Assembly: GCF_004010195.1 (NCBI RefSeq) | Contig: NC_057753.1 | Span: 9,696,622 to 9,760,621 of the forward strand | Source: Chiloscyllium plagiosum | Lineage: Eukaryota | Length of the DNA stretch: 64,000 nt | Direction of reading: 5' to 3' | Shown: positions 39,985 through 57,854 of the stretch, piece by piece | Layout: each line of letters begins with the position of its first letter | How positions within the stretch are numbered: the first letter of the stretch is position 1 | Notes under the pieces: model-generated | Seen by the model: only the letters and a program-made list of their open reading frames with translations | Told to the model about the DNA's origin: nothing | Database searches by the model: none | Position numbers and translations under genes: made by a program

Positions 39985-40625
39985 ACTTTTAAAATGTTGT
40001 AATTCCACCAGTCTCCACCACTTCCTCTGGCAGTTCGTTTCATACATCCAACACCCTCTGTGAAAAGGTTGCCCCTCAGCTCCCTTTTAAATCATTCCCC
40101 TTTCATCTCAAATGTATGCCCTCTAGTTTTGGACTCCCCTACCCTGGGGAAAAGACTTTGGGTATTCACCCTATTCATGCCACTTACAAACATAAGATCA
40201 CCCCTCGGCCTCGGATGCTCCAGGGTAAATATTCCCGGCCTATTCAGCCTCTCCTTGTAGCTCAAACCCTCCAAATCTGGCAACAGCCTTGTAAATCTTT
40301 CAAGGTTTCACACATGTTTCCTATAGCAGGGAGACCAGAACTGAACACAATATTCCAAAAGTGGCCTCGCCAATGCCCTGCATGGCCACAACATGACCTT
40401 CCGACTCCTGTACTCTATGCTCTGACCAATAAAGGCTCATACCAAACACCTTCTTCACTGTCCTATCTACCTGTGACTCCACTTTCAAGGAACTATGAAC
40501 CTGCACTCCAAGGTCTCTTTGTTCAACAACACTCCCCTTAACTGTGCCAGTCCTGCCTGGATTGCTTGTCTAAAATGCAATACTTCACATTTCTCTAAAT
40601 TAAACCCCATCTGCCACTCCTCGGC
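39985..40625 (-). mobile_element. CR1 LINE fragments
   Basis: LEGLSYKERLNRPGIFTLE...KTRGH; VQVHSSLKVESQVDR. Confidence 0.8.
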
Positions 40626-40831
40626 CCCTCAATCAATTCTAATCTATAGCAAACTATCTTTCCTCCCTTATTCCCTTGAAGCTGAAAGTCTCCATCCCCC
40701 ACACACCCCCTCCATTCTCACTTTGCTGAACCTAATCCCTGCTGTACCTCATTCTGAAGTGTCTGGCTCATGCTAATAAACAGGCCCATACTCAGTAGGT
40801 CTAATTGAAACGTAAAGAATACCATGTGGCT

Positions 40832-40875
40832 GGGCAGACACCCACTTGGAAGGTACTGGCCCAGGACGTGAAAGG
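40832..40875 (+). pseudogene. Internally deleted QSOX exon 1 copy
   Basis: GGGCAGACACCC joined to PTWKVLAQDVK|GTGAGG, followed by the same intron as at 31836. Confidence 0.75.
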
Positions 40876-41641
40876 TGAGGCAGGTTGGGGAACGGAGGGG
40901 AAGGAACGTGTAGCCTGTCCTGTCATAGTGACATTTTACACTGACTTTCCATCTGCTTTTACTGGGGCTTGTGCTTTTTACCCTCACTGTGTGTTTAATC
41001 CTTGTGCTGTTTCCCTCTCACTGTTTGTTTAATCCTTGTGCTGTTTACCCCTCACTGTTTGTTTAATCCTTGTGCCAGTCACTGAAGGGGCAGGACCTGT
41101 TGAGAATGGTTAGTAAAGCATGTGATGTACCAAGCCTTGTTAACATGGATATAGTTTGTTATTTGTCAAAGTATACTTTTTATTATTTAGAGTCATAGAG
41201 TTGTACAGCTCGGAAACAGATCCTTTGGTCCAACCCGTTCATGCCGACCAGGTATCCTAACTCAGTGTCGAGAGTGTAGTGCTGGAAAAGCACAGCAGGT
41301 CAGGCAGCATCTATGAACCTGCACTCCAAGGTCTCTTTGTTCAACAACACTCCCCTTAACTGTGCCAGTCCTGCCTGGATTGCTTGTCTAAAATGCAATA
41401 CTTCACATTTCTCTAAATTAAACCCCATCTGCCACTCCTCGGCCCCTCAATCAATTCTAATCTACAGCAAACTATCTTTCCTCCCTTATTCCCTTGAAGC
41501 TGAAAATCTCCATCCCCCACACACCCCCTCCATTCTCACTTTGCTGAACCTAATCCCTGCTGTACCTCAGTCTGGCTCATGCTAATAAACAGGCCCATAC
41601 TCAGGTAGGTCTAATTGAAACGTACAGAATACCATGCGGCC

Positions 41642-41684
41642 GGGCAGACACCCACCTGGAAGGTACTGGCCCAGGATGTGAAAG
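41642..41684 (+). pseudogene. Internally deleted QSOX exon 1 copy
   Basis: Same junction as the 40832 copy. Confidence 0.75.
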
Positions 41685-42189
41685 GTGAGGCAGGTTGGGG
41701 AACAGAGGGGAAGGAACGTGTAGCCTGTCCTGTCATAGTGACATTTTACACTGACTTTCCATCTGCTTTTACTGGGGCTTGTGCTGTTTACCCTCACTGT
41801 TTTTTAATCCTTGTGCTGTTTACTCTTGCTGTTACTTGTGCAATTGCTTAGGGTAGTGTGTAAATACTAGTGAAGGAGATTATGCACCAACATGTATATG
41901 TTACCCAGTCACTGAAGGGGCAGGACCTGTTGAGAATGGTTAGTAAAGCACAGTGGTGTACTAAGCCTTGTTAACATGGATATAGTTTGTTATTTGTCAA
42001 AGTATACTTTTTATTACTTAGAGTCATAAGATTTGTACAGCTCGGAAACGGATTCTTTGGTCCAACGCGTTCATGCCGATCAGGTATCCTAACTCAGTGT
42101 CGAGAGTGTGTTGCTGGAAAAGCACAGCAGGTCAGGCAGCATCCGAGCAGCAGGAGAATCAACATTTCGGGCATAAGCCTTTCATCACA

Positions 42190-42535
42190 AGGGTTGTGGC
42201 AGGGAGGAGTGGAAAGGACTGGGAAGGGAGTTGGGGATGGGAAGGGAGGTTATTTGAATTGGAGAATTCAAATGTTGAATCCTCTGGGCTGTGGACTGCT
42301 CAGGAGGAAAATGAGGTGTTGTTCCTCCAATTTGTGGTTTGGTTTGTTGTGGCAATGGAGGAGGCCAAAGATGGTCATGTCAGAAAGGGAGTGGGAACGG
42401 GAAAGAAAACGGGTGGTGACTGGGAAGTCCGTACAGCCTCTGAAGACCTGGCTGCGATGCCTGGCAAACCATTCCCCAAGTTTACGCTTGGTCTTCCCAA
42501 TGTAGAGAAGACCACAATTGGCAAACACATGGCAA
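42190..42535 (-). mobile_element. Penelope GIY-YIG endonuclease fragment
   Basis: CGLLYIGKTKRKLGEWFARH...KLEEQHLIFLLSSPQPRGFNI. Confidence 0.85.
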
Positions 42536-43729
42536 TGTGAAGTCATAGCTTTTGCTGTGTAAAAAAAAAACAGAAAGCAGGTGCATTGTTTAAATGGAGA
42601 TGTATTTGGATGCGGAGGAAGTGAGAACTGCAGATGCTCGAGATCAGAGTCAAAAAGTGTGGTGCAGGAAAAGCACAGTAGGTCAAGCAGCATCCAAGGA
42701 GCAGGAGACTCGACGTTTCGGGCACAGTTCCTTCATCAGGAATGATGTGTGGGTGTACAAAGTGGCCTCAGCGTCCCTCTACACCAGTCAATGCCAGTTG
42801 TCAGACAGATGCAGCAAGCAGAATCAGCAAGGCAAGTGGTATATATCAGCAAGAGGAATTGAGTTCAGAAGTGGGGATGTCTTCCTGCAGTTAGGGGGGG
42901 TCCTTGAATATATTCAAGGCTGAGTTCAGCTGATTTTGGAACAACAAAGAAGTGGATGCTTATGGAGAAAGGCAAGAAAACGATTTTAAGACCAGTACAG
43001 AACAGTTACAGAGTCAGACAGCACAGAAACAGACCCTTCAGTCCAACTTGTCCATGCTGACTCTGTTCTCAAACCAAACTAGTCCCACCTGCCTGTGTTT
43101 GGCTCATATCCCTCCAAACCTTTCCTATTTATGTACTTTATTAAATGTCTTTTAAAACATTGTAACTCTACCTGCATCCACCACTTCCTCTGGACATTCA
43201 TCCCACACATGAACCACTCTGTATGAAAAAAACATGGTGCCCCTGAAGACTTTTAAAAATCTTTCTCCACTCATGTTCAAAATTTGCTTTCTAATCTTGA
43301 AACCACCACCCAAAGGAAACAACGCCTGCCGTTCAGCTCATCTATTTCCCCCCCCATGATTTTATAAACCTCGATAAGGTCACCTCTCAACAGTCTATGC
43401 TCCAGTGAAAAAGTCCCAGCCTATCCACCTTGATGTAGATAGATCCATATCCAGTTATGATGTGTTCAATACTGATGCAGGGTCAAAAGACCAAATGGCC
43501 AACTCCTGCTTCCATTCTCTCACTTTGTGTCCTTGACAGCAAGAGACCATAGGACATAGGAGCAGAAATTAGGCCATTCAGCCCATCAGGTTTGCCCAGA
43601 CCATTCAATCATAGCTGATACGTTTTCTCAACCGTATTCTCCCACTTTCAGAAAAGTGAAAACCAAGGGAGTGTGTGGGATGGAGATTTTTAGTTTCTCG
43701 GGAATAAGAGAGTTCACTATAAATTAGAA

Positions 43730-45841: not shown

Positions 45842-46242
45842 TGTAATGGAAAATTAACATTTATTGTGAAATCTATAAAAGCATAGGGGAACAAAGAAGT
45901 AAGGGCCTGACTTTGCAGAGGGCAAGCATTGCAGACAGACAGAAAAAAGTAAGGATAAACCGACCTAACAGCAGACTTCCAAGGCCAGTAAACTACCATT
46001 GCAACAGTCAAGTAATGAGAAAAACAACTCCATATATGGAAAGGAACTCTAAATATTCCATGCTCCTAGCCTTGAGGTGTTGATAAGGAAAAGCGAATTA
46101 TATTATAAAGGGAATATGGGAAAGCTATCAGGCGCCCCTTACATGAGGCGTCTTGCCAATGTATCAGGTCTCTTTGCAGAGGTTAAAAATAAACTTTTTC
46201 TTTGCTCTTGCTAATAGTCGAGTTGATTTAATTTGCATGACA
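45842..46242 (+). repeat. ERV-A 5' LTR
   Basis: TGTAATGGAAAATTAAC...CATGACA with TATAAA (~46104) and AATAAA (~46188); homologous to 52784-53167. Confidence 0.9.
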
Positions 46243-46249
46243 GTAAACT

Positions 46250-46267
46250 TGAGGGCTCGCCCAGGAC
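46250..46267 (+). promoter_or_regulatory. Primer-binding site, tRNA-Pro-like
   Basis: TGAGGGCTCGCCCAGGAC matches the MLV tRNA-Pro PBS TGGGGGCTCGTCCGGGAT at 14/18 positions. Confidence 0.75.
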
Positions 46268-46739
46268 CCCGAAACTGGGGAAGATTCTGAAGATTCCCAG
46301 GAGGTGTAGGTGCCAGGTGAAGGACTTTCACTTCATCTCAAGCGCTAAATTGGCCCCTTTACGCGAGGGAGCTGGGAATCTGTGGATCGTCCCAGCGCCA
46401 GGATCCAAATCGAATAGGTTCCGGGTAAGAGTCGTGGCTTAAGTAATCCTACATAGAGACTCGTTCTAAGAGAATAAATAAATCAGGAGGAGGGTCCAGT
46501 GAACTCTCGCGTGGTATTAGAGTAAAACTCAAGGGAAAGGATTGCTGTCTCTAGAGTGTTTAAGAGAGAGCAGGTTTAAGGGTGGTTTTAGCCCTGGAAC
46601 CACCACTGGCTGAGTTGGACTTACCCGGATGCGTCCAATGAGAGGGAACCTCTGGAGATAAAAGCAAGTCAAATTGGCTAAAAAAAGACAGAGACAGACA
46701 GAGACACACAGAGAGAAAGACACACAGAGAAAGAGAGAG

Positions 46740-47196: not shown

Positions 47197-50100
47197 GGGA
47201 AGGCTAAGGTGGAGGTGGGCAGCCCACAAGGGACTAGTGAGCCTCTTTCCTTTATGCTTGGCAACGAAGACTCGCTTATGCTAATCTCTTCTACTAACCT
47301 AACGGGCACTGAAACATGTCCCACCTCCATAGTGAGTGCTGAGATTGCAGAGCGTGGACCATATGTTCAGTATAACAATGATGCGTATAAGTTGATGCCT
47401 ACCTCTATGTCATACGTGGAACGTACACCAGTTACCTTTTTGGTAGGTACAGGTGCAACCTATTCAGTCCTTAAATCATACCAGTTCGGAGAGTCAACGC
47501 AAATAAAGAGGAGTGGAAGGTTCCTGAACTCAATGGGTGCACCAGGAGTCGTGATACGAGAGAGGTTTACCCCTGTTGTGCCTGCTGTTTACCCCTGTTG
47601 TGCAAACCCAGTAATGGGGAAACATTCCAATTCTCAGTTTTGTTATCGGAATTCTGTTCTTTAAATCTGATGGCTCAGAATCTCAGTGAGACTGGGGTTG
47701 GATTTGCTCAGACGGGCTTGCAAGTAATACGAAAAGAAGATTTACCAGTGCAGGCTGTAAAATACGGCTCAGGAGCCCTGATGTATGTCTATGAATGGCG
47801 ATTAAGCCAGACAGCGATAAGTTCAGTGAGCGATTCACTCGCCCTGGAAGCAAGTAACTAAATTGGCTAACTCAAGCAGATAGGGGAGTCCAGGTAACCC
47901 CCGCTAGCCTGGAGAGCCTAGGAAGGTGGCCCTATACTATATTGGCGTTTTCCTAAGGTAGAAGTCTTGGACCCAAGATTGAGAAAGGTCCCTACTGAGT
48001 TGTGGGCAAAAGGCAAACATGACGTGGGGCTCATACGAGGCTGTGAACCCATACAAATAACCCCGAAGTCTGAGTATCGTCCTTGCAGAGCACAACACCC
48101 GTTAAAACCAGAGGCTATCGAAGGAATTACTCCAGTCTTTGAATTCCTCCTAAAGGCTGGAGTGATAATCCCCTGTGAAAACTCACTGGCGAGAACCCCC
48201 ATTTTTCTGGTCAAAAACGCAAATATTCCGGGTGAACCAGAGGAATGGAGGTTTGTTCAAGACCTACAGGCAGTCAATAACGCTGTTGTTCCGCACGCCC
48301 CAAATGTTCCCAACCCCTATACTATATTGGCTCAAATTCCACCAGACAGTAAATGATTCTCTGTTGTGGAGTTAGCAAATGCCTTCTTTAGTGTATTGGT
48401 ACACCCAGAAAGTCAATTCTGGTTCACTTTTTCATTCAAAAGAAAATCGTATACCCACACGTGACTGTCAAGGTTACTGTGAGTCCCCCCACCATATATA
48501 ATGAGGCTCCACGCAGGAGTCTGGAGACTCTTGTTCTAACCCCGCGGTCAGCGCTTCTGCTGTATGTAGATGATTGCTTAATAGCAGCACCAACAGAGGA
48601 ACAATGTGAGAAAGATACCCTTGCATTGCTCTGCCATCCAGCAAGGGAAGGGCACAAAGCTAGTCTCGCAAAGCTACAAAGTTGTGCAACTGGTGAAGTT
48701 CTTAGGTCACTTAATATCTGAACAAGGGAAGGCCATTGGTCAAGACAGAGTTCAAGCAATCCAGCAAATTCCAAAGCCTCACACGAAGAAACAATTGCTG
48801 TCCTTTTTGGGGCATGTGCTCCGACTGTAGAATGTTTATCCACATTACACAACCCATGAGGCATCTCTAAGTGACATAGCCCATGGCAAAGGGTTGCTGA
48901 GCCAGAGTCCGTTGCAGTGGACCCCAGAGGCCAAGAGTGCCTTTGCTGAATTGAAAAAGACCCTCCAAACTACACAGACACTGGGGATTCTGAATCCAAA
49001 CAAGCCTTTTGTACAAACGGTAGATGTGAAGCATGGCTGCATGACATCTCTGCTGTTACAAGATCATGGGGCAAAATTGAGGCCGGTAGCTTATTTTTCA
49101 GCAAAACTAAACCCTATAGTGGAGGATTGCCTAAATGTCTGTGAGCCGTGGCTGTAGCTGAAAAGGCTGTTGTAGTGTCCAGGGACATAATCAGCTATGG
49201 TGAATTAACCCTACTGGCCCCACATGCAGTATCCTTACTGCTACCCATGAGGCAGTCAAAGCGGGATCACTCCCTTCTCATCTGTCAGTGCAAGCAGCGG
49301 AGCTGATAGCCAACTTACATGCCTCAGTTAAGGCAAAGGGAAGGACAGTGAATATTTACACAGACAGCAGATATGCATTTGGGATTGTACATGATTTTGG
49401 AACCCTATGGAAACACAGGGACTTCTTGACCTCCTCCAGAAAGCCCATCACACACCCTGGCCTGATGTCTGACCTCCTGGAAGCGGTCCTATTGCCCAAA
49501 TCACTTGCTGTGTGTAAGTGTGAAGCCCACACAAAAAATAACAATTCCATTTCTCAAGGCAATGCGAAGACGGACTCAGCGGCAAGGACAGCAGCCCAGC
49601 AGCTGCCAAGTGATCAGTTTGACATGTGTATGACAAACATTTGAACCCCAGCAGCAGACATATGGGAGTTACAGTCACAGGCCACGCTGGAGGAGAAGCA
49701 TGAGTGGACAAGGACAGGGTGCAGCATGAGGGAAGGGGTGTGGTGTGGCCCCAATGGTAAACCCTGTCTACTACGATCATTATTCCCATTCTATGCCAAA
49801 CTGACACACGGTAATGACCATATGTCAAAAGAGGGGGAATGTACAACAGTATTTCGGCACACTGGTACACTAAGGGATTCATTACTCCCAGAAATATTGT
49901 GAATGATGTGTTATCTGTGCCACTATTAGTGTGGGGAGGGGAATACAGATGAGACAGGCAGCACACCCCCAACCCCAAAGACCTTTGAAAATTTACGGAT
50001 GGATTTTATTGAACTAACACACAGCTAAGGTAATAGTTGGTATGTTTTCCAAAGGGTGGAAGCATTCCCCACGTCTAAACAGGATGCCAGTGCAGTAGCC

Positions 50101-50776
50101 AAGGCTTTGCTAACTGAAATAATTCTGAGATGGGGCATCCCTGAAAGGCTTAGAAGTGACAATAGGACACCATTTGTCAATAATGCCTTACAGCAGATCA
50201 GTGATTACTTGGGAATAAACATGAGACAACACTGTGCCTACCACCCAGCGAGCAATGGGACAGTGGAACGAGAGAATGCTACCCTAAAAAATAAATTGAC
50301 AAAATGCTGTGAGGAACTCGGGGTGACATGGACAAAGGCACTTCCAATTGTGCTAATGTATATGAGATCTAGGAGGAGAGGAAGAGCCAATCTTCGCCCG
50401 TTTGAGATTTTGTTTGGTAAGCCGCCCAACACAGGAGTTGGCCCAAGACCTAAAGCAAGACAAATAACAGACCACAGTGAGAATGAGATGTTGTGTTACT
50501 GTAGAAAACTCTACACTTTTGTCTCAAATACAGAATCAAGTGAGAGCAGTACTACCCCAACCAGCAGGGGGGAAGCTGCACGATCTAGAACCTGGAGACT
50601 GGATAGTGGTGAAAGACTTCAAGAGGAAAAGCTGGAAGGCAAAGAGGTGGCTGGGGCCATTTCAAGTGCTCCTTACAACACAGATAGGTGTTAAAATCAC
50701 CGAAAGAACCACGTGAATATATGCCAGCCATTGCAAATGTGTAGCTGGACCCGAGGAGACATCGGAACCAAATAAG
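47197..50776 (+). pseudogene. pol: pro-pol (protease, RT, RNase H, integrase), multiple stops and frameshifts
   Basis: FLVGTGATYS (DTG>GTG), RFVQDLQAVN, LLYVDDCLIAA, VNIYTDSRYAFG...GNAKTDSAA, RSDNRTPF...HPASNGTVERENATL, and PGDWIV...RWLGPFQVLLTT. Confidence 0.95.
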
Positions 50777-50840: not shown

Positions 50841-52632
50841 ATGCCTCATATAAATATGGGGCTGCCCCAGCTCACACTGTCAGTAAGCACCCTAGCAGGA
50901 CTATTCCTAAGGGCAGGGGCGTCTGAGATACAGCCGCAGACAGTAATCATAACCGAGGGTGCTAAGGGAACCTTTACATGTGACCCATGGCTGTTTAGTA
51001 ACCAGGAGGACTATAAATGGGATGATAAATATTTATGCAGGAATCCTTGTGTCCAAGTGACTGGCACTTAATAGTGGCCACCACGGCTACAGGGACACCT
51101 GACATGGGAAATAGGTATTCTATTATCAAGGAAGGAGGTCCCAGGGCACGGGTAATAATAACTAAGACTCAGAAGAATGATGAGGGGGTCTGGTGGTGTG
51201 GAATAGATAGACCCTTCTCCGACATCTATAGAAAGGTGAATATAGTGGTACAGTTCCCTCCTCCCCTCCAAGATGCAGTGCAGAAGGTCCTACAGAAGAT
51301 AGCACCAGGGGCATGGCAACCAATCAAACCAAATCATGGACATAACTCCAAGCAGGGCAAAGGGCATTAATGTCACGCCAGAACCTGGAGGGAATCAGCC
51401 CGGACTCAGGAGTGAGTCTAATTCGGTAGTGGAATTGGCCCTCCATGAGATAAATGGTGTAAGTGTGACGCCAGTAGGTTGGGAGGTGCGAAGGGCCATC
51501 GCTAGATGGGAAGGGAACAGAGCTTGTGCCTTGGCCCAAATACAACACCGGAGATTAGAGGTTGGCTACCCTTGTCGGATATGTTTGCACACAGCCCAAT
51601 GGTGGGCTGCTGAACCAATCACAGAGAGCCCGGCAAGAAATTCTAGCTGCCTGCTTCCGCAGACTACCCTGACCCTGATAGGGGGAGCAATAAGGGCAAA
51701 TCTTGCGCCACCACCCGAACGCAAGGCTAACTGCAGTCCCAAGGCTGACACGCTCCCAACCACAGCCTTCCATATAGTATTTGCACAAATCAGGGGAGAC
51801 TTCATTTGGGGATCTCCCAATATATTACGACGTTATACTTGAACAACGATTCTTACTCAGCAACCTACGCAAATGGTATGATCAACATTACTTGTTCCTT
51901 TAATCAGTAATCAGAACATGATGGCGGGTATAATATGGGCCTGTGGAGAGAGAGGGTACCACCACCTCCCTCCGGGATGGAAAGGGTGCTGCTACCCCAT
52001 GGCACAAGTGTTCATCCCAAAAGCTAGTAATGGGCAAACCCGAAGGGACATGCCACTGCATTGGAATGGGAAACACACTCGCAGGACTACATAAGGAGCG
52101 AACATTGGGTGGTCTATTCTCTTGGGAGCAGGGACAACAGTGGCAATAAACAAGATTAATGGCCTGGCATATAGTGTATAACTGTTCGCAAATAGATGGA
52201 GGAAGGTCTAGCACTCACTAATACTGAGTTAACGGCAGTAAGGGAAGCAGTGATACAAAATTGATTAGTACTAATCATACTGATGGCAGAGAAAGGGGGC
52301 ATCTGCAAATTGCAGATGCCCCCATGCTGTTTTAATATTCCTGATGTGTCCCAGAATATCACTAGTGTGATAAATCATATGAAAGCGGCAGTAGGACCGC
52401 CTCCCCCAGCATATGGCTCTTGGTTCCCATGGCTTACCTCCCTTTGGGGTATTGGATCCTACACGCTCTACTAGTTGTAGGGCTGGTCATACTAATAGTG
52501 CTTTGTATAAGGACCCTGCTTGTGTACCTGCCTATGGCGTTTGCTTATGAGTGCAGCGGGATGCCAAATGGTAAAACGACCAGAGACTCCAACGCAGGAA
52601 AACCCGATTGCATGGATCCCACCATACAGTAA
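50841..52632 (+). pseudogene. env: env with N-terminal Ig V-set domain, frameshifted
   Basis: Signal peptide ending AGA|S; Ig V domain 50922-51253; Pro-rich linker; CRIC (CWxC-like) at 51573; QTRR furin-site remnant at 52035; fusion-peptide-like GGLF..GAGTTVA; ISD QN*LVL..LMAEKGG plus CX6CC (52304-52330); TM LLVVGLVILIVLCI. Confidence 0.9.
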
Positions 52633-52783
52633 CGCTGAAGTGTGTGACGTGTGAAAATGGGCTATGTACAGGGACGATACCACCAGAAAGCTGTGTTACA
52701 GGTAGACGGTGTCGGAGGAAAGGCCTGGTACTCCCTAAGCAGTCTGATGTATAGCTATCTGGCTCGGTATATTTTTATGTCAT

Positions 52784-53167
52784 TGTCATGAAATGGAAAA
52801 TTAACATTCATTGGGGAATAAAGAAGTAAGGATCTGACTGGAACTAAGGGTATTGCAAACAAACAAAAATGTAAAGGCAAACCGACCTAACAGCAGACTT
52901 ACAAGGCCAGTTAAACTACCATGTCAGCAGCCAAGAAATGAGAAAATCAACTCCATATATGGAAAGGAACTTGAATGTTCCAGGCCTCTAGCCATGCAGG
53001 TGCTGATAAGGAAAAGTGAATTCTAGTATAAAGGGAGTATGTGAAAGCAAGACGCCCCTTACATGAGGTGTCTTGCCAATGTATTGAGTCTCTTTGCAAA
53101 GGTCTGAAATAAACATTTTCTTTGCTCTTGCAAGCATTTGAGTTGAGTCAATTTAACTTCCACGACA
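52784..53167 (+). repeat. ERV-A 3' LTR
   Basis: TGTCATGAAATGGAAAATTAAC...CACGACA with TATAAA and AATAAA; clearly diverged from the 5' LTR. Confidence 0.9.
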
Positions 53168-53534: not shown

Positions 53535-54040
53535 GAGAGTTACAGCAGAGGAACAGTCCCTTCAGTCCAACTCATCCATGCTGACCAGATATCATAAATC
53601 TACCTCGTCCCATTTGCCAGCACTTGGCCCATGTCCCTCTCAACCATTCCCATTCATATACCCATCCAGCGAAGTTTTAAATGTTGTCATTGTACCAGCC
53701 GCCACCACTTCCTCTGGCAGCTCATTCCTTACATGCACCACCCTCTGAATATAGGCGTTGCCCCTTAGGTTCCTTTTAAATCTCACCCTCACCCTAAACC
53801 TATGACCCGTCCAGGGAAAAGACTTGTCTATTTACCCTATCCGTGCCCCTCATGATTTTACAAAAGTTTGTAGGGTCACCCCTTGGCCTCTGGCGCTCGA
53901 GAGAAAACAGCCCCACCCTGTTCAGCTCAAACCCTGACAACATCTTTGTCAATCTTTTCAGAACCCTTTCAAGTTTTGCAACATCCTATAGCAGAGACCA
54001 GAACTGCACACAACATTCCAAAAGTGGCCTAACCAATGTC
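53535..54040 (-). mobile_element. CR1 LINE 3' portion
   Basis: Reverse complement of CR1 ORF2 C-terminus and 3'UTR. Confidence 0.8.
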
Positions 54041-56109: not shown

Positions 56110-57854
56110 TGTGGGAGAATTGTTAGATTTGGATCAGCCATTTTATCACATATTAAAGCCTGGAAACCATTTTGAATCTCATCTTAGTGCTTGCTTGCGA
56201 AAAGTTATATTTTTCCTCGGCTAAGATTGTGTTTCCCAGGCTCGGCAGAGATGGTTGGCCTTGCAGCTGTAATACTCCCCGATAAACAAATTCTTTCCTT
56301 GCAGGGGACTTTATTTCCATCATCCACAGTTGGCGAGTCAGGCAGGAGATACCCTGGTTCTGCCAGGTCACTGGCTGATATCGTTTGAGAGATGAAATAT
56401 AGAGGGTGGTTGCTGCTTTTGTTGTGTCCAAAGGAAAAGGAAAGCTGGCCAGGGACAAAAATGCTGTTAGAAATGCTGATACAATTCTCGCTATTCGGCC
56501 ATAAGATACTAGTGTGAGTACTCAACAGGATCATCGTGTCCGGATGTAACGTTGCTGAGAGCTTCTTATGCTTTACAAAATTAATAATAAAGAATTTGCT
56601 TGCCCCAGGGTTATGACAGGTGAAAGCCTATTTGATAAGCCGTGGACCCACACTGAGATCTGTAGCATGCTTCAAAATGCCCCTGACCTGTTAGAGTGCC
56701 CAACATTAGTTTTAATTGGCTAGTAAAATTCTGCAATAAGTATAATTGCTTGCTTCAGGACATCCAGACTTGAATAAATTTGGCATACAGGATGCAGTGG
56801 GCAATTATTAAAGACTCCATTGTATTTCCCTTGGGTTGTGGACTCATGCAGAGACATGAACAACTTGCAGCTTTCTTTCCCCCCGCCTTTGGAACTGCTC
56901 AACTGAAAATCAAAGTCACCCCGCAGACAATCCTGTGCTCGGCTCAGTTCACTGTTGTGGCCCTCCTCTCCAGCGATATCTCAGATGCCGAGATTTCCCC
57001 TTCCTGATGAAACCCCTGATGATGATTCCCAGCCCTTGGAGCCTTCTGCCCCTGTCCTTACTGAACTAGAAGACTATCTGTCCAATCTCCAACCACCACC
57101 CCCTGACAATCCCCCTGGCTCTGGGTATAATCCCCCTTTTGCTGACACCCCCAATCTCTTCGTTTTAATAAAAAAAAAGGAGGAGAAAGTGAGGTCTGCA
57201 GATGCTGGAGATCAAAGTTGAAACTTTATTGCTGGAACAGCATAGCAGGTCAGGCAGCATCCAGGGAACAGGAGATTCGACGTTTCGGGCACAGGCCCTT
57301 CTTCAGGAAAAAAAGGAGGGATTGTGGGAGAACTTGACCAAAATTGACACAAAACTGCGTGGAAGTCATTTTGTCACAAAGCAATGTTTGCAGTGAAATG
57401 TAGCCTGTTAACATAATGCTGTCTGAGCCCTGGCTAAGGAATTCTGTTTTGATAGCCTGACCTTGCAGCTGCAGGCTGTCTCTGCTCCTCGGGCCATTAG
57501 ACTGTGCTACTCCATAGAATGATGGATTGGTTCTTTCTGTCCCTTATCGGTAATTCGAGCCTAGCTGAACCTGCAGTATAAGATAACATTCAGATTTGTA
57601 GACATTAAGAAATGTAGGTCTGGACAATGTATGTGAACCTTACGACTGCCCCTCCATTGCATAATTAATGGAGAGTGGCTTGTGTTTTACCATAAAATTT
57701 GTAACACTCTGTATTTCATTGGAATACGTCGGACTTTGTTTTGAACAAATAGGTCTTCCCAAGGCAATGAATAAAGCTAGTTAATTGCTCAAGGTCTCCT
57801 CTCCTGACTACTTTGCTTTAAATGATTTGGCACACGAGTTACTTTGCCCCAACA
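56110..57854 (+). mobile_element. Heavily deleted ERV-C remnant with 3' LTR 57323-57854
   Basis: TGTGGGAGAA at both 56110 and 57323; capsid-like KPWTHTEICSMLQNAPD (~56637); PPT AAAAAAAGGAGGGAT before the LTR; AATAAA at 57770; ends CCCCAACA. Confidence 0.65.
57276..57309 (-). ncRNA. Minimal hammerhead ribozyme motif (Penelope-type terminus, family 1)
   Basis: Minus strand reads TTC-CTGAAGA-A-GGGC(CTGT)GCCC-GAAAC-GTC-GAA; all core residues and stems I/II are intact. Confidence 0.7.

Follow-up and report, generated by a model that had tools for sequence, protein, structure and literature searches.

The 64,000-nucleotide stretch of DNA analyzed here (hereafter the window) lies on the forward strand of NCBI RefSeq contig NC_057753.1 of the shark Chiloscyllium plagiosum (assembly GCF_004010195.1, positions 9,696,622 to 9,760,621) and contains a decayed endogenous retrovirus (ERV) whose envelope (env) gene begins with an immunoglobulin V-set (IgV) domain of the CD300/CMRF35/pIgR type. 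The domain is homologous to those of the CD300/CMRF35/pIgR receptors in both sequence and fold. It is a derived form that stands outside the receptor gene family, being fused to a retroviral surface subunit (SU) and having neither a membrane anchor nor a signalling tail of its own. We think it probable that the domain, which is the N-terminal head of Env, was captured once from a host and functions in receptor binding.

Results

Layout and lesions of the window env gene

The signal peptide and V-set domain are coded by positions 50841-51253 of the window (+ strand, as are all proviral features given below), and one frameshift splits the domain. The env start codon and predicted signal peptide occupy 50841..50921, a hydrophobic leader that is kept in relatives and has an inferred cleavage site. 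The N half of the IgV domain follows at 50922..51050 (strands A-C with the B-strand Cys, the C-strand Trp and KY-x-C-x3-C), as delimited by reading and by alignment to intact copies. The C half at 51053..51253 (strands C'-G with D-x-G-x-W-W-C-G) matched the Pfam V-set profile with E=0.0019 (18.8 bits) and is 59-85% identical to other copies. With open reading frames (ORFs) listed from stop to stop, ORF 50841-51071 encodes the leader followed by the first half of the domain, ending at KYLCRNPC. Translation of ORF 51029-51370, which is in the +2 frame, gives PSDWHLIV...DEGVWWCGIDRPFSDIYRKVNIVVQ, and the frame taken from 51053 runs P-S-D-W-H-L-I-V ... D-E-G-V-W-W-C-G-I-D-R-P-F-S-D-I-Y-R-K-V-N-I-V-V-Q.

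The frameshift within the V domain (51048..51055) is a change of frame between the ORFs beginning at 50841 and 51029 at a place where relatives are uninterrupted. A preliminary description, made from the letters of the window, had joined the two halves by assuming a 2-nt slip in the TGTGT at 51048-51052. That pentanucleotide is present and a 2-nt skip does give the peptide then reported, but all 13 stop-free relatives have one extra residue between the last Cys of KYLCRNPC (itself a Tyr in 5 of the 13) and P-S-D-W, and hence a net -1 frameshift describes the lesion better than a gain of 2 nt.

A short Pro-rich linker carrying a second frameshift occupies 51254..51312, where relatives read PPPPP...DAVQKVL in frame into SU. 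This second shift, near 51300-51312, parts the V domain and its linker from the rest of SU, which continues in ORF 51303-51842. The remnant of the SU C-domain (51303..52094) has in-frame stops and aligns with the intact fish Env proteins P0158 and P0161 and with 26 of 29 related loci; its CXXC motif (C-R-I-C, 51573..51584) aligns with the CW(I/V)C of P0008, P0158 and P0161. The remnant of the transmembrane subunit (TM; 52095..52633) retains a fusion peptide, heptad region, immunosuppressive-type stretch, membrane anchor and tail, all interspersed with stops and frameshifts, and is 41-55% identical to P0158 and P0161 by tblastn. Its CX6CC motif (52304..52330, in ORF 52265-52474) aligns with that of the relatives. 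Since the env is broken into pieces, the TM piece scored weakly against the TLV_coat profile (E=0.18). Given the several in-frame stops and additional shifts downstream, the env of the window copy is thoroughly dead.

Sequence and fold of the domain

The window retains the hallmarks of a V-set domain, namely the B/F-strand Cys pair, the C-strand Trp and D-x-G-x-W-W-C-G, and all of the motifs named in the preliminary description (EG-x6-C, KY-x-C-x3-C, RYSI, D-x-G-x-W-W-C-G and V-x-I-x-V) were found. The Pfam cut-offs are 26 bits for V-set (PF07686) and 22.5 bits for TLV_coat (PF00429). Five intact copies from the same genome scored 27.7, 26.6, 29.9, 26.3 and 17.7 bits against V-set, and hence four of the five, at 26.3-29.9 bits, exceeded the cut-off; the matches span profile positions 2-101. 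Among the 13 stop-free copies whose alignment served as the viral profile, W59 and D113 are invariant, the B-strand Cys is replaced by Tyr in 3 and the F-strand Cys by Ser in 2. Across 74 viral and cellular rows C21, C93, D87 (the Asp of D-x-G) and K-Y-x-C are at least 90% conserved. A second Cys pair is present as C-x3-C, as in the teleost CMRF35-like proteins, with a spacing shorter than that of CD300A or of the shark host exons described below.

A search of solved structures with the single sequence gave CD300A (2q87) as the best match with E=0.07, and the 13-copy profile gave pIgR (7jg2) with E=0.0017 and CD300A with 0.1. An AlphaFold2 (AF2) model predicted from the 74-row alignment of viral and cellular CMRF35-like rows had a predicted local distance difference test score (pLDDT) of 82.9, a predicted TM-score (pTM) of 0.77 and eight strands in a two-sheet V topology; it superseded an unusable prediction made from the 13 viral rows alone (pLDDT 41). 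When this model was used in Foldseek the first rank went to human CD300A (2q87_C; E=1.7e-6, TMq 0.69, root mean square deviation 2.7 A), and ranks 1-4 were CD300A and pIgR (pIgR D2 and the pIgR ectodomain; mouse and human). The RBD of the human ERV Env EnvP(b)1 (6w5y_C; RBD, receptor-binding domain) was at rank 15 with TMq 0.61, and other matches included NKp44, CD300lf, TREM-1, TIM-4 and antibody VL domains. The rows listed within the first 50 ranks were all Ig V-type with probability 1.00. The assignment to the CD300/CMRF35/pIgR-type V-set made in the preliminary description was thus borne out both by the Pfam scores of the intact copies and by the top Foldseek ranks.

The V domain belongs to the virus

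At least 150 matches were scored in the 3.56 Gb shark assembly (the window is at 9.70-9.76 Mb of its contig 44), with candidates numbering 399-489. The copies are 47-85% identical to the C half of the window domain. Of the 29 best other related loci, 27 have integrase directly upstream and 26 have env pieces on the downstream side; none of the 29 lacks both. Nine 10-kb stretches taken from more divergent groups contain 11 further copies, in all of which reverse transcriptase (RT), RNase H and integrase lie upstream of the V domain, with SU downstream in 7 of the 11. As the 29 loci and 11 copies carry the V domain beside virus genes, the domain is ancestral to a diverse ERV family rather than a late insert. 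All of the copies examined carry the segment, and copies without it, which the preliminary description had named as part of what would refute it, were not seen among these 29 loci and 11 copies. As that description had it, the domain has no intron and is located between integrase and the remaining env.

Two loci, L009 and L012, read in a single frame from the V domain into the CXXC region, as does the teleost protein P0008, and four full-length proteins (below) combine V-set and TLV_coat. Hence the domain is the N-terminus of Env and not a separate gene, in keeping with the preliminary description. The possibility of a separate accessory ORF was ruled out by these single-frame relatives and by the four full-length Env proteins.

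The ratio of nonsynonymous to synonymous substitution rates (dN/dS), calculated by the Nei-Gojobori method for the V domain of intact copies, was 0.65 between two shark subfamilies (40 pairs, with values of 0.41-0.85). Within subfamilies it was 0.50 for the older one and 1.33 for the younger (L061-L065). This pattern fits selection in the viral phase plus neutral decay afterwards, although it is weak evidence. Stronger evidence of constraint is the retention of the structural core residues at 30-40% identity across shark, chimaera and teleost.

Some shark copies depart from the common layout. In the L061-L065 subfamily Tyr replaces the second Cys of C-x3-C and the open frame stops soon after the F-G region. 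In the copies on contig 8 (L067, two in L068, and the first in L069) DNA homology to the window ends at the same point, 51294-51302, which is directly after the V domain plus linker. Further downstream in L067 and L068 neither SU nor TM pieces were detected, L067 being full of N runs. Many similar matches with a 106-residue open frame are concentrated in two regions of contig 8, 34.9-38.4 Mb and 62-76 Mb. The contig 8 copies may belong to a subfamily that was truncated or arose by recombination and was then multiplied by segmental duplication.

Env heads in other fishes

A word-indexed protein search with the shark ORF gave no match at near length, and an exhaustive HMMER search was needed instead. 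At E<=0.001 the 13-copy profile matched 171 of the 1.84 billion proteins searched. The best single-domain matches (60-75 bits) were P0006, P0005, P0008, P0011 and P0017. The first four of these are Env heads, the domain being followed by a C-(N/E)-(D/G)-N ... A-L motif with C-W-x-C; P0011, unlike the C-W-x-C heads, has a V domain that leads straight into a transmembrane anchor. P0017 has no visible Env part and was grouped with the Env heads solely by a V domain near-identical to that of P0008. Two of the Env heads come from the chimaera Callorhinchus and the teleost Xyrichtys. The alignment of teleost P0008 with a shark copy covers 217 residues at 26% identity (E=6e-22) and takes in both the V domain and the CXXC region.

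Searches with P0008 and P0161 as queries brought up four proteins of 611-623 residues (P0156, P0157, P0158 from Siganus, and P0161) having V-set and TLV_coat in one ORF, with scores of 35.9-43.3 bits and 48-60 bits, respectively, both above the cut-offs. All four have C-W-x-C and C-x6-CC, and the window env aligns with full-length relatives (P0158, P0161) from head to cytoplasmic tail. Among 18 related proteins all have CX6CC and 13 have both CX6CC and CXXC.

More distant fish Envs, with 35-40% identity to P0161 along the greater part of their sequence, have heads that are V-like by eye but marginal in Pfam (E 0.014-0.09). Against the viral profile such heads scored 30, 9.5, 8.2 and 5.9 bits, compared with 129 bits for a textbook IgV head. 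P0179 has a long N-terminal leader and no recognizable V domain before the CXXC region. In P0178 (Phoxinus, 473 residues) CXXC comes after only 76 residues with no V-set match, its N-terminus being possibly incomplete. The distant Envs may form a series that runs from a textbook IgV via heads with expanded loops to no head. P0177, P0179 and P0182 also have a long conserved leader (P-W-H-P-F-R-x-P-G-x-C-G-x-R-G-T) plus a hydrophobic stretch ahead of the head, which the shark family lacks.

Cellular relatives and trees

Ranked below the Env heads in the profile search are cellular proteins with 38-50 bits per domain and E-values, again per domain, between 1e-11 and 1e-15. Names were available for 21 of the 30 clusters that we looked up; two are Env-type and the other 19 are all teleost, of which 10 are named CMRF35-like molecule and 2 polymeric immunoglobulin receptor-like, while 7 are annotated as hypothetical or simply as Ig-domain proteins. 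The viral heads and the teleost receptors have in common K-Y-(F/L)-C-(R/K)-D-P-C and W-C-G-(V/I)-(D/E)-R-x-x-x-D-x-Y, and the teleost CMRF35-like relatives carry membrane anchors and tyrosine-motif tails. By sequence comparison, the nearest cellular relatives of the viral heads are the teleost CMRF35-like/pIgR-like receptors.

When a teleost CMRF35-like query was run against the shark genome the ERV copies came first (E to 6e-11), followed by V exons on contig 26 (best 8e-8). Hence, within this genome the closest relatives of the teleost receptor type are viral copies and not host genes. The contig 26 exons, at about 11.02-11.48 Mb and 7.5 Mb (L070-L073), number at least 14; they are open V-set exons of the classical CD300/pIgR type arranged in tandem, and probably represent the shark's own CD300-like gene cluster. 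Four of these host exons have the longer classical Cys spacing and scored 4-19 bits against the viral profile.

Trees were built from V domains, the outgroup-rooted one from an alignment of about 100 columns with 79 cellular rows. The first tree omitted V domains below 33 bits and the outgroup-rooted tree those below 36 bits. A minimum coverage of 65 or 70 profile positions was also required, and no more than two domains (first tree) or one domain (rooted tree) per protein were kept. In the first tree the Env-linked heads lie on one side (23 rows) of a branch with a Shimodaira-Hasegawa-like approximate likelihood ratio test (SH-aLRT) support of 97, and that side included two rows without a prior Env label, P0078 and P0084. 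With four shark host V exons (L070-L073) as outgroup the Env clade had 28 tips and a support of 98, namely 26 labelled viral rows plus P0078 and P0084. P0078 proved to have C-W-V-C; the Env link of P0084 is uncertain. The tree of viral and host V domains that the preliminary description had called for therefore puts the Env heads on one side (SH-aLRT 97 and 98). Viral monophyly was not rejected by the approximately unbiased (AU) test (p=0.80), and a single origin of the Env heads is the simplest reading.

In the rooted quick tree the viral clade is one long branch several nodes inside the teleost receptors (node support 98). We do not claim such nesting, as the AU test allows the grouping of all cellular rows (p=0.64). 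The type of donor is deduced from similarity and the common motif and not from tree nesting.

The provirus and its surroundings

The element in the window is a decayed class I (gamma/epsilon-like) ERV of about 7.3 kb on the + strand. The class assignment was made because its RT is nearest to that of Moloney murine leukemia virus (MMLV) and far from the foamy-type enzymes: for the RT piece at 47922-48353 the nearest solved structure was MMLV RT with E=1.2e-12, the foamy-type match being much weaker (2e-6). The long terminal repeats (LTRs) were paired by blastn (45882-46234 versus 52809-53154, 81.4% identity over 355 columns), in agreement with repeat pairs D6 and D10. The 5' LTR was placed at 45842..46238 and the 3' LTR at 52789..53162 from blastn and by-eye reading, and these ends, set by eye, are approximate. 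Directly 3' of the 5' LTR is a stretch (46249-46275) that we take to resemble the tRNA-Pro primer-binding site of MLV-type viruses. The decayed pro-pol region (47197..50694) is spread over several frames, its ORF pieces giving protease at 47197-47664, RT at 47922-49157 and RNase H at 49204-49644. Integrase ends at 50694 (Pfam rve 50029-50691, E=2.4e-7). The env, delimited by ORFs and alignment to relatives, extends from 50841 to about 52633.

Upstream of the provirus, at 40488-42143, a unit of about 810-830 bp is duplicated in tandem, the copies being 94-98% identical (families D1, D2, D5 and D7). The provirus is flanked by dispersed short repeats that are 73-80% identical, one set at 42105-42198, 42656-42749 and 57223-57316 and another at 40000-40066, 43163-43229 and 53687-53753. 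The dispersed repeats are likely to be copies of other interspersed elements.

Discussion

Capture of the domain from a host gene is the interpretation that best accounts for its sequence. Several points weigh against that interpretation or parts of it. The window copy is broken and could be scored only in halves, the C half with its 18.8 bits falling below the cut-off and the N half giving no match. The sequence matches to solved structures are weak (E 0.0017-0.4), and the good AF2 model depends on an alignment that contains cellular CMRF35-like rows. A tree with all 79 cellular rows together was not rejected by the AU test (p=0.64), and the trees do not fix the direction of transfer. The dN/dS values indicate moderate constraint only and are blurred by decay after integration, and the receptor-binding role is argued from position alone.

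It is improbable that the head is an ordinary Ig-like RBD of the RBD-C class of gamma-type Envs, vertically inherited from no traceable donor and only generically like CD300. A recent preprint describes the RBD-C of murine leukemia virus (MLV), feline leukemia virus (FeLV) and EnvP(b)1 as a modified IgV-like fold (bioRxiv 10.1101/2024.03.17.585361). The EnvP(b)1 RBD is indeed among our Foldseek matches (6w5y_C, rank 15, TMq 0.61), and the heads of the distant fish Envs are barely V-set (E 0.014-0.09; 6-30 bits against the viral profile). However, RBD-C is described in the same source as having no canonical B-F disulfide, whereas the fish heads keep both Cys residues, the C-strand Trp and D-x-G-x-Y/W-x-C. 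They also pass the V-set cut-off, match cellular CMRF35-like proteins at 1e-11 to 1e-15 and have a family-specific motif in common with them. The present data therefore lean towards grouping the heads with the cellular CMRF35-like V domains over the MLV-type RBD-C. Transfer in the reverse direction, such that the teleost CMRF35-like genes with KY-x-C-x-D-P-C acquired their V exon from an endogenized Env, seems less probable still. The V-domain tree effectively divides the rows into two sides, and the AU result (p=0.64) leaves its root unfixed, as this scenario would allow. The cellular group, however, is both sizeable and varied, its 79 rows including many paralogues from single species, proteins with several V domains in tandem, and anchors and tyrosine-motif tails. 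It belongs to the pan-vertebrate CD300/pIgR family, and the tree rooted on shark exons puts the viral clade as a single long branch inside cellular diversity.

Capture of the domain is also compatible with a function other than entry. The V domain could be displayed or shed chiefly to disturb host immunity, as a decoy for the ligand of an inhibitory or activating CD300-like receptor, with the entry site in the SU C-domain instead. The donor family consists of immune receptors by cluster names and the dN/dS constraint is only moderate. Moreover, new heads are proposed in the preprint to do no more at first than enhance cell binding, the original SU still engaging the receptor (bioRxiv 10.1101/2024.03.17.585361). 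Against a decoy, the domain occupies the RBD position of gamma-type Envs and is kept at 30-40% identity across shark, chimaera and teleost, and no secreted or separately cleaved form is evident. We regard the decoy as unlikely to be the explanation, although acting as a decoy or otherwise modulating immunity is a serious alternative and need not preclude receptor binding. Nothing was found in favor of a retrocopy or exon that entered this one provirus at a later time, the refuting case of the preliminary description, and it was ruled out by the presence of the domain at the same place in 29 of 29 loci and in the 11 copies. Given that public Env proteins of other fishes also have the segment at that place, either such an insertion or an assembly chimera has next to no probability.

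For a captured, receptor-binding head, an ancestral fish retrovirus would have recombined with the V exon of a CMRF35-like receptor gene and would have kept the IgV as a cell-binding head through a lineage of ERVs in sharks, chimaera and teleosts. The Env has the order signal peptide, canonical IgV, short Pro-rich linker, SU C-domain with CXXC and TM with CX6CC. A receptor-binding role is suggested because the IgV sits where gamma-type Envs carry their N-terminal RBD. By analogy with those Envs we somewhat favor a sequence of events in which the head binds a ligand of the donor-receptor type on host cells, followed by the CXXC/CX6CC disulfide switch and fusion. Ligand binding would thereby trigger a disulfide-linked SU-TM fusion machinery, as in other gamma-type Envs. 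The capture of a host domain and its display on Env, as put forward in the preliminary description, thus stands as the best interpretation, short of formal proof of its direction.

There is one precedent for a retroviral Env that acquired a host IgV. According to the preprint, SIRP-like host IgV domains were captured by alpharetrovirus-like Envs lacking CXXC in four mammalian orders, which was claimed as the first such case (Hotzel 2024, bioRxiv 10.1101/2024.03.17.585361). The fish Env is like the SIRP-type Env-Dbi and Env-Per described there in having at its N-terminus a canonical IgV with a B-F disulfide and homology to a host immune receptor, and in being read as a capture. It is unlike them in donor, which is of the CD300/CMRF35-like/pIgR-like family (no SIRP was among the Foldseek rows listed), in having CXXC and in its hosts, which are cartilaginous and ray-finned fishes and not mammals. 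The fish lineage is large and old, with LTRs 81% identical and copies differing by up to about 40%.

Like the RBD-C Envs (MLV, FeLV and EnvP(b)1; 6w5y), the fish Env has an independently folding Ig-like head at its N-terminus, joined through a Pro-rich linker to a CXXC-bearing SU C-domain, and its TM carries CX6CC. In the preprint RBD-C is described as lacking both a B-F disulfide and any host relative that can be aligned with it, and as having expanded VRA/VRB loops, whereas the fish head is a compact V-set of about 110 residues that aligns with receptors. With CD300/CMRF35/pIgR proteins (2q87, 4nof/5d4k; P0034, P0052 and P0055) the viral head has in common the V-set, the B-F disulfide, the strand-C K-Y-x-C and D-x-G-x-Y-W-C-G, as well as the W-C-G-(I/V)-(D/E)-R-x-x-x-D-x-Y tail. 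Teleost CMRF35-like forms match the head in the short C-x3-C with D-P, whereas mammalian CD300/pIgR chains and the four shark host exons have a longer Cys-Cys spacing. Unlike the CD300-type receptors, the viral domain lacks its own anchor or signalling tail and is fused to SU.

The fish family is a second, independent case of host IgV capture by a retroviral Env, after the SIRP-like precedent. The preliminary description knew of no described case; that precedent limits the novelty of IgV capture as such, and our literature search (outside which lay subscription journals and bioRxiv supplements) found no published description of a CD300/CMRF35/pIgR-like domain in a retroviral Env. The origin of new retroviral RBDs is largely unknown, and the fish family adds a case that differs in donor, Env type and hosts. 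Many copies and several subfamilies allow evolutionary tests. Reported ligands of CD300-type receptors include phosphatidylserine and phosphatidylethanolamine. Since CD300-type receptors have known ligand classes, a CD300-like head suggests ligands that can be tested.

The Hotzel survey recognizes two RBD classes in gamma-type Env, reports no further distinct RBD among the CXXC-bearing ones, and so has no captured head in a gamma-type Env of the kind found in fishes (bioRxiv 10.1101/2024.03.17.585361). The same text proposes that RBD-C is possibly descended from an unidentified host IgV. It is conceivable, though we hold this only tentatively, that the head of this gamma-type lineage came from a CMRF35/CD300-like receptor of ray-finned-fish type and later spread across vertebrate classes, the graded heads recording the passage from a captured IgV to a viral RBD. 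If so, the graded fish heads would be a living record of a captured IgV becoming a viral RBD, and the series would directly support the open proposal that the MLV-type RBD-C began as a captured host IgV.

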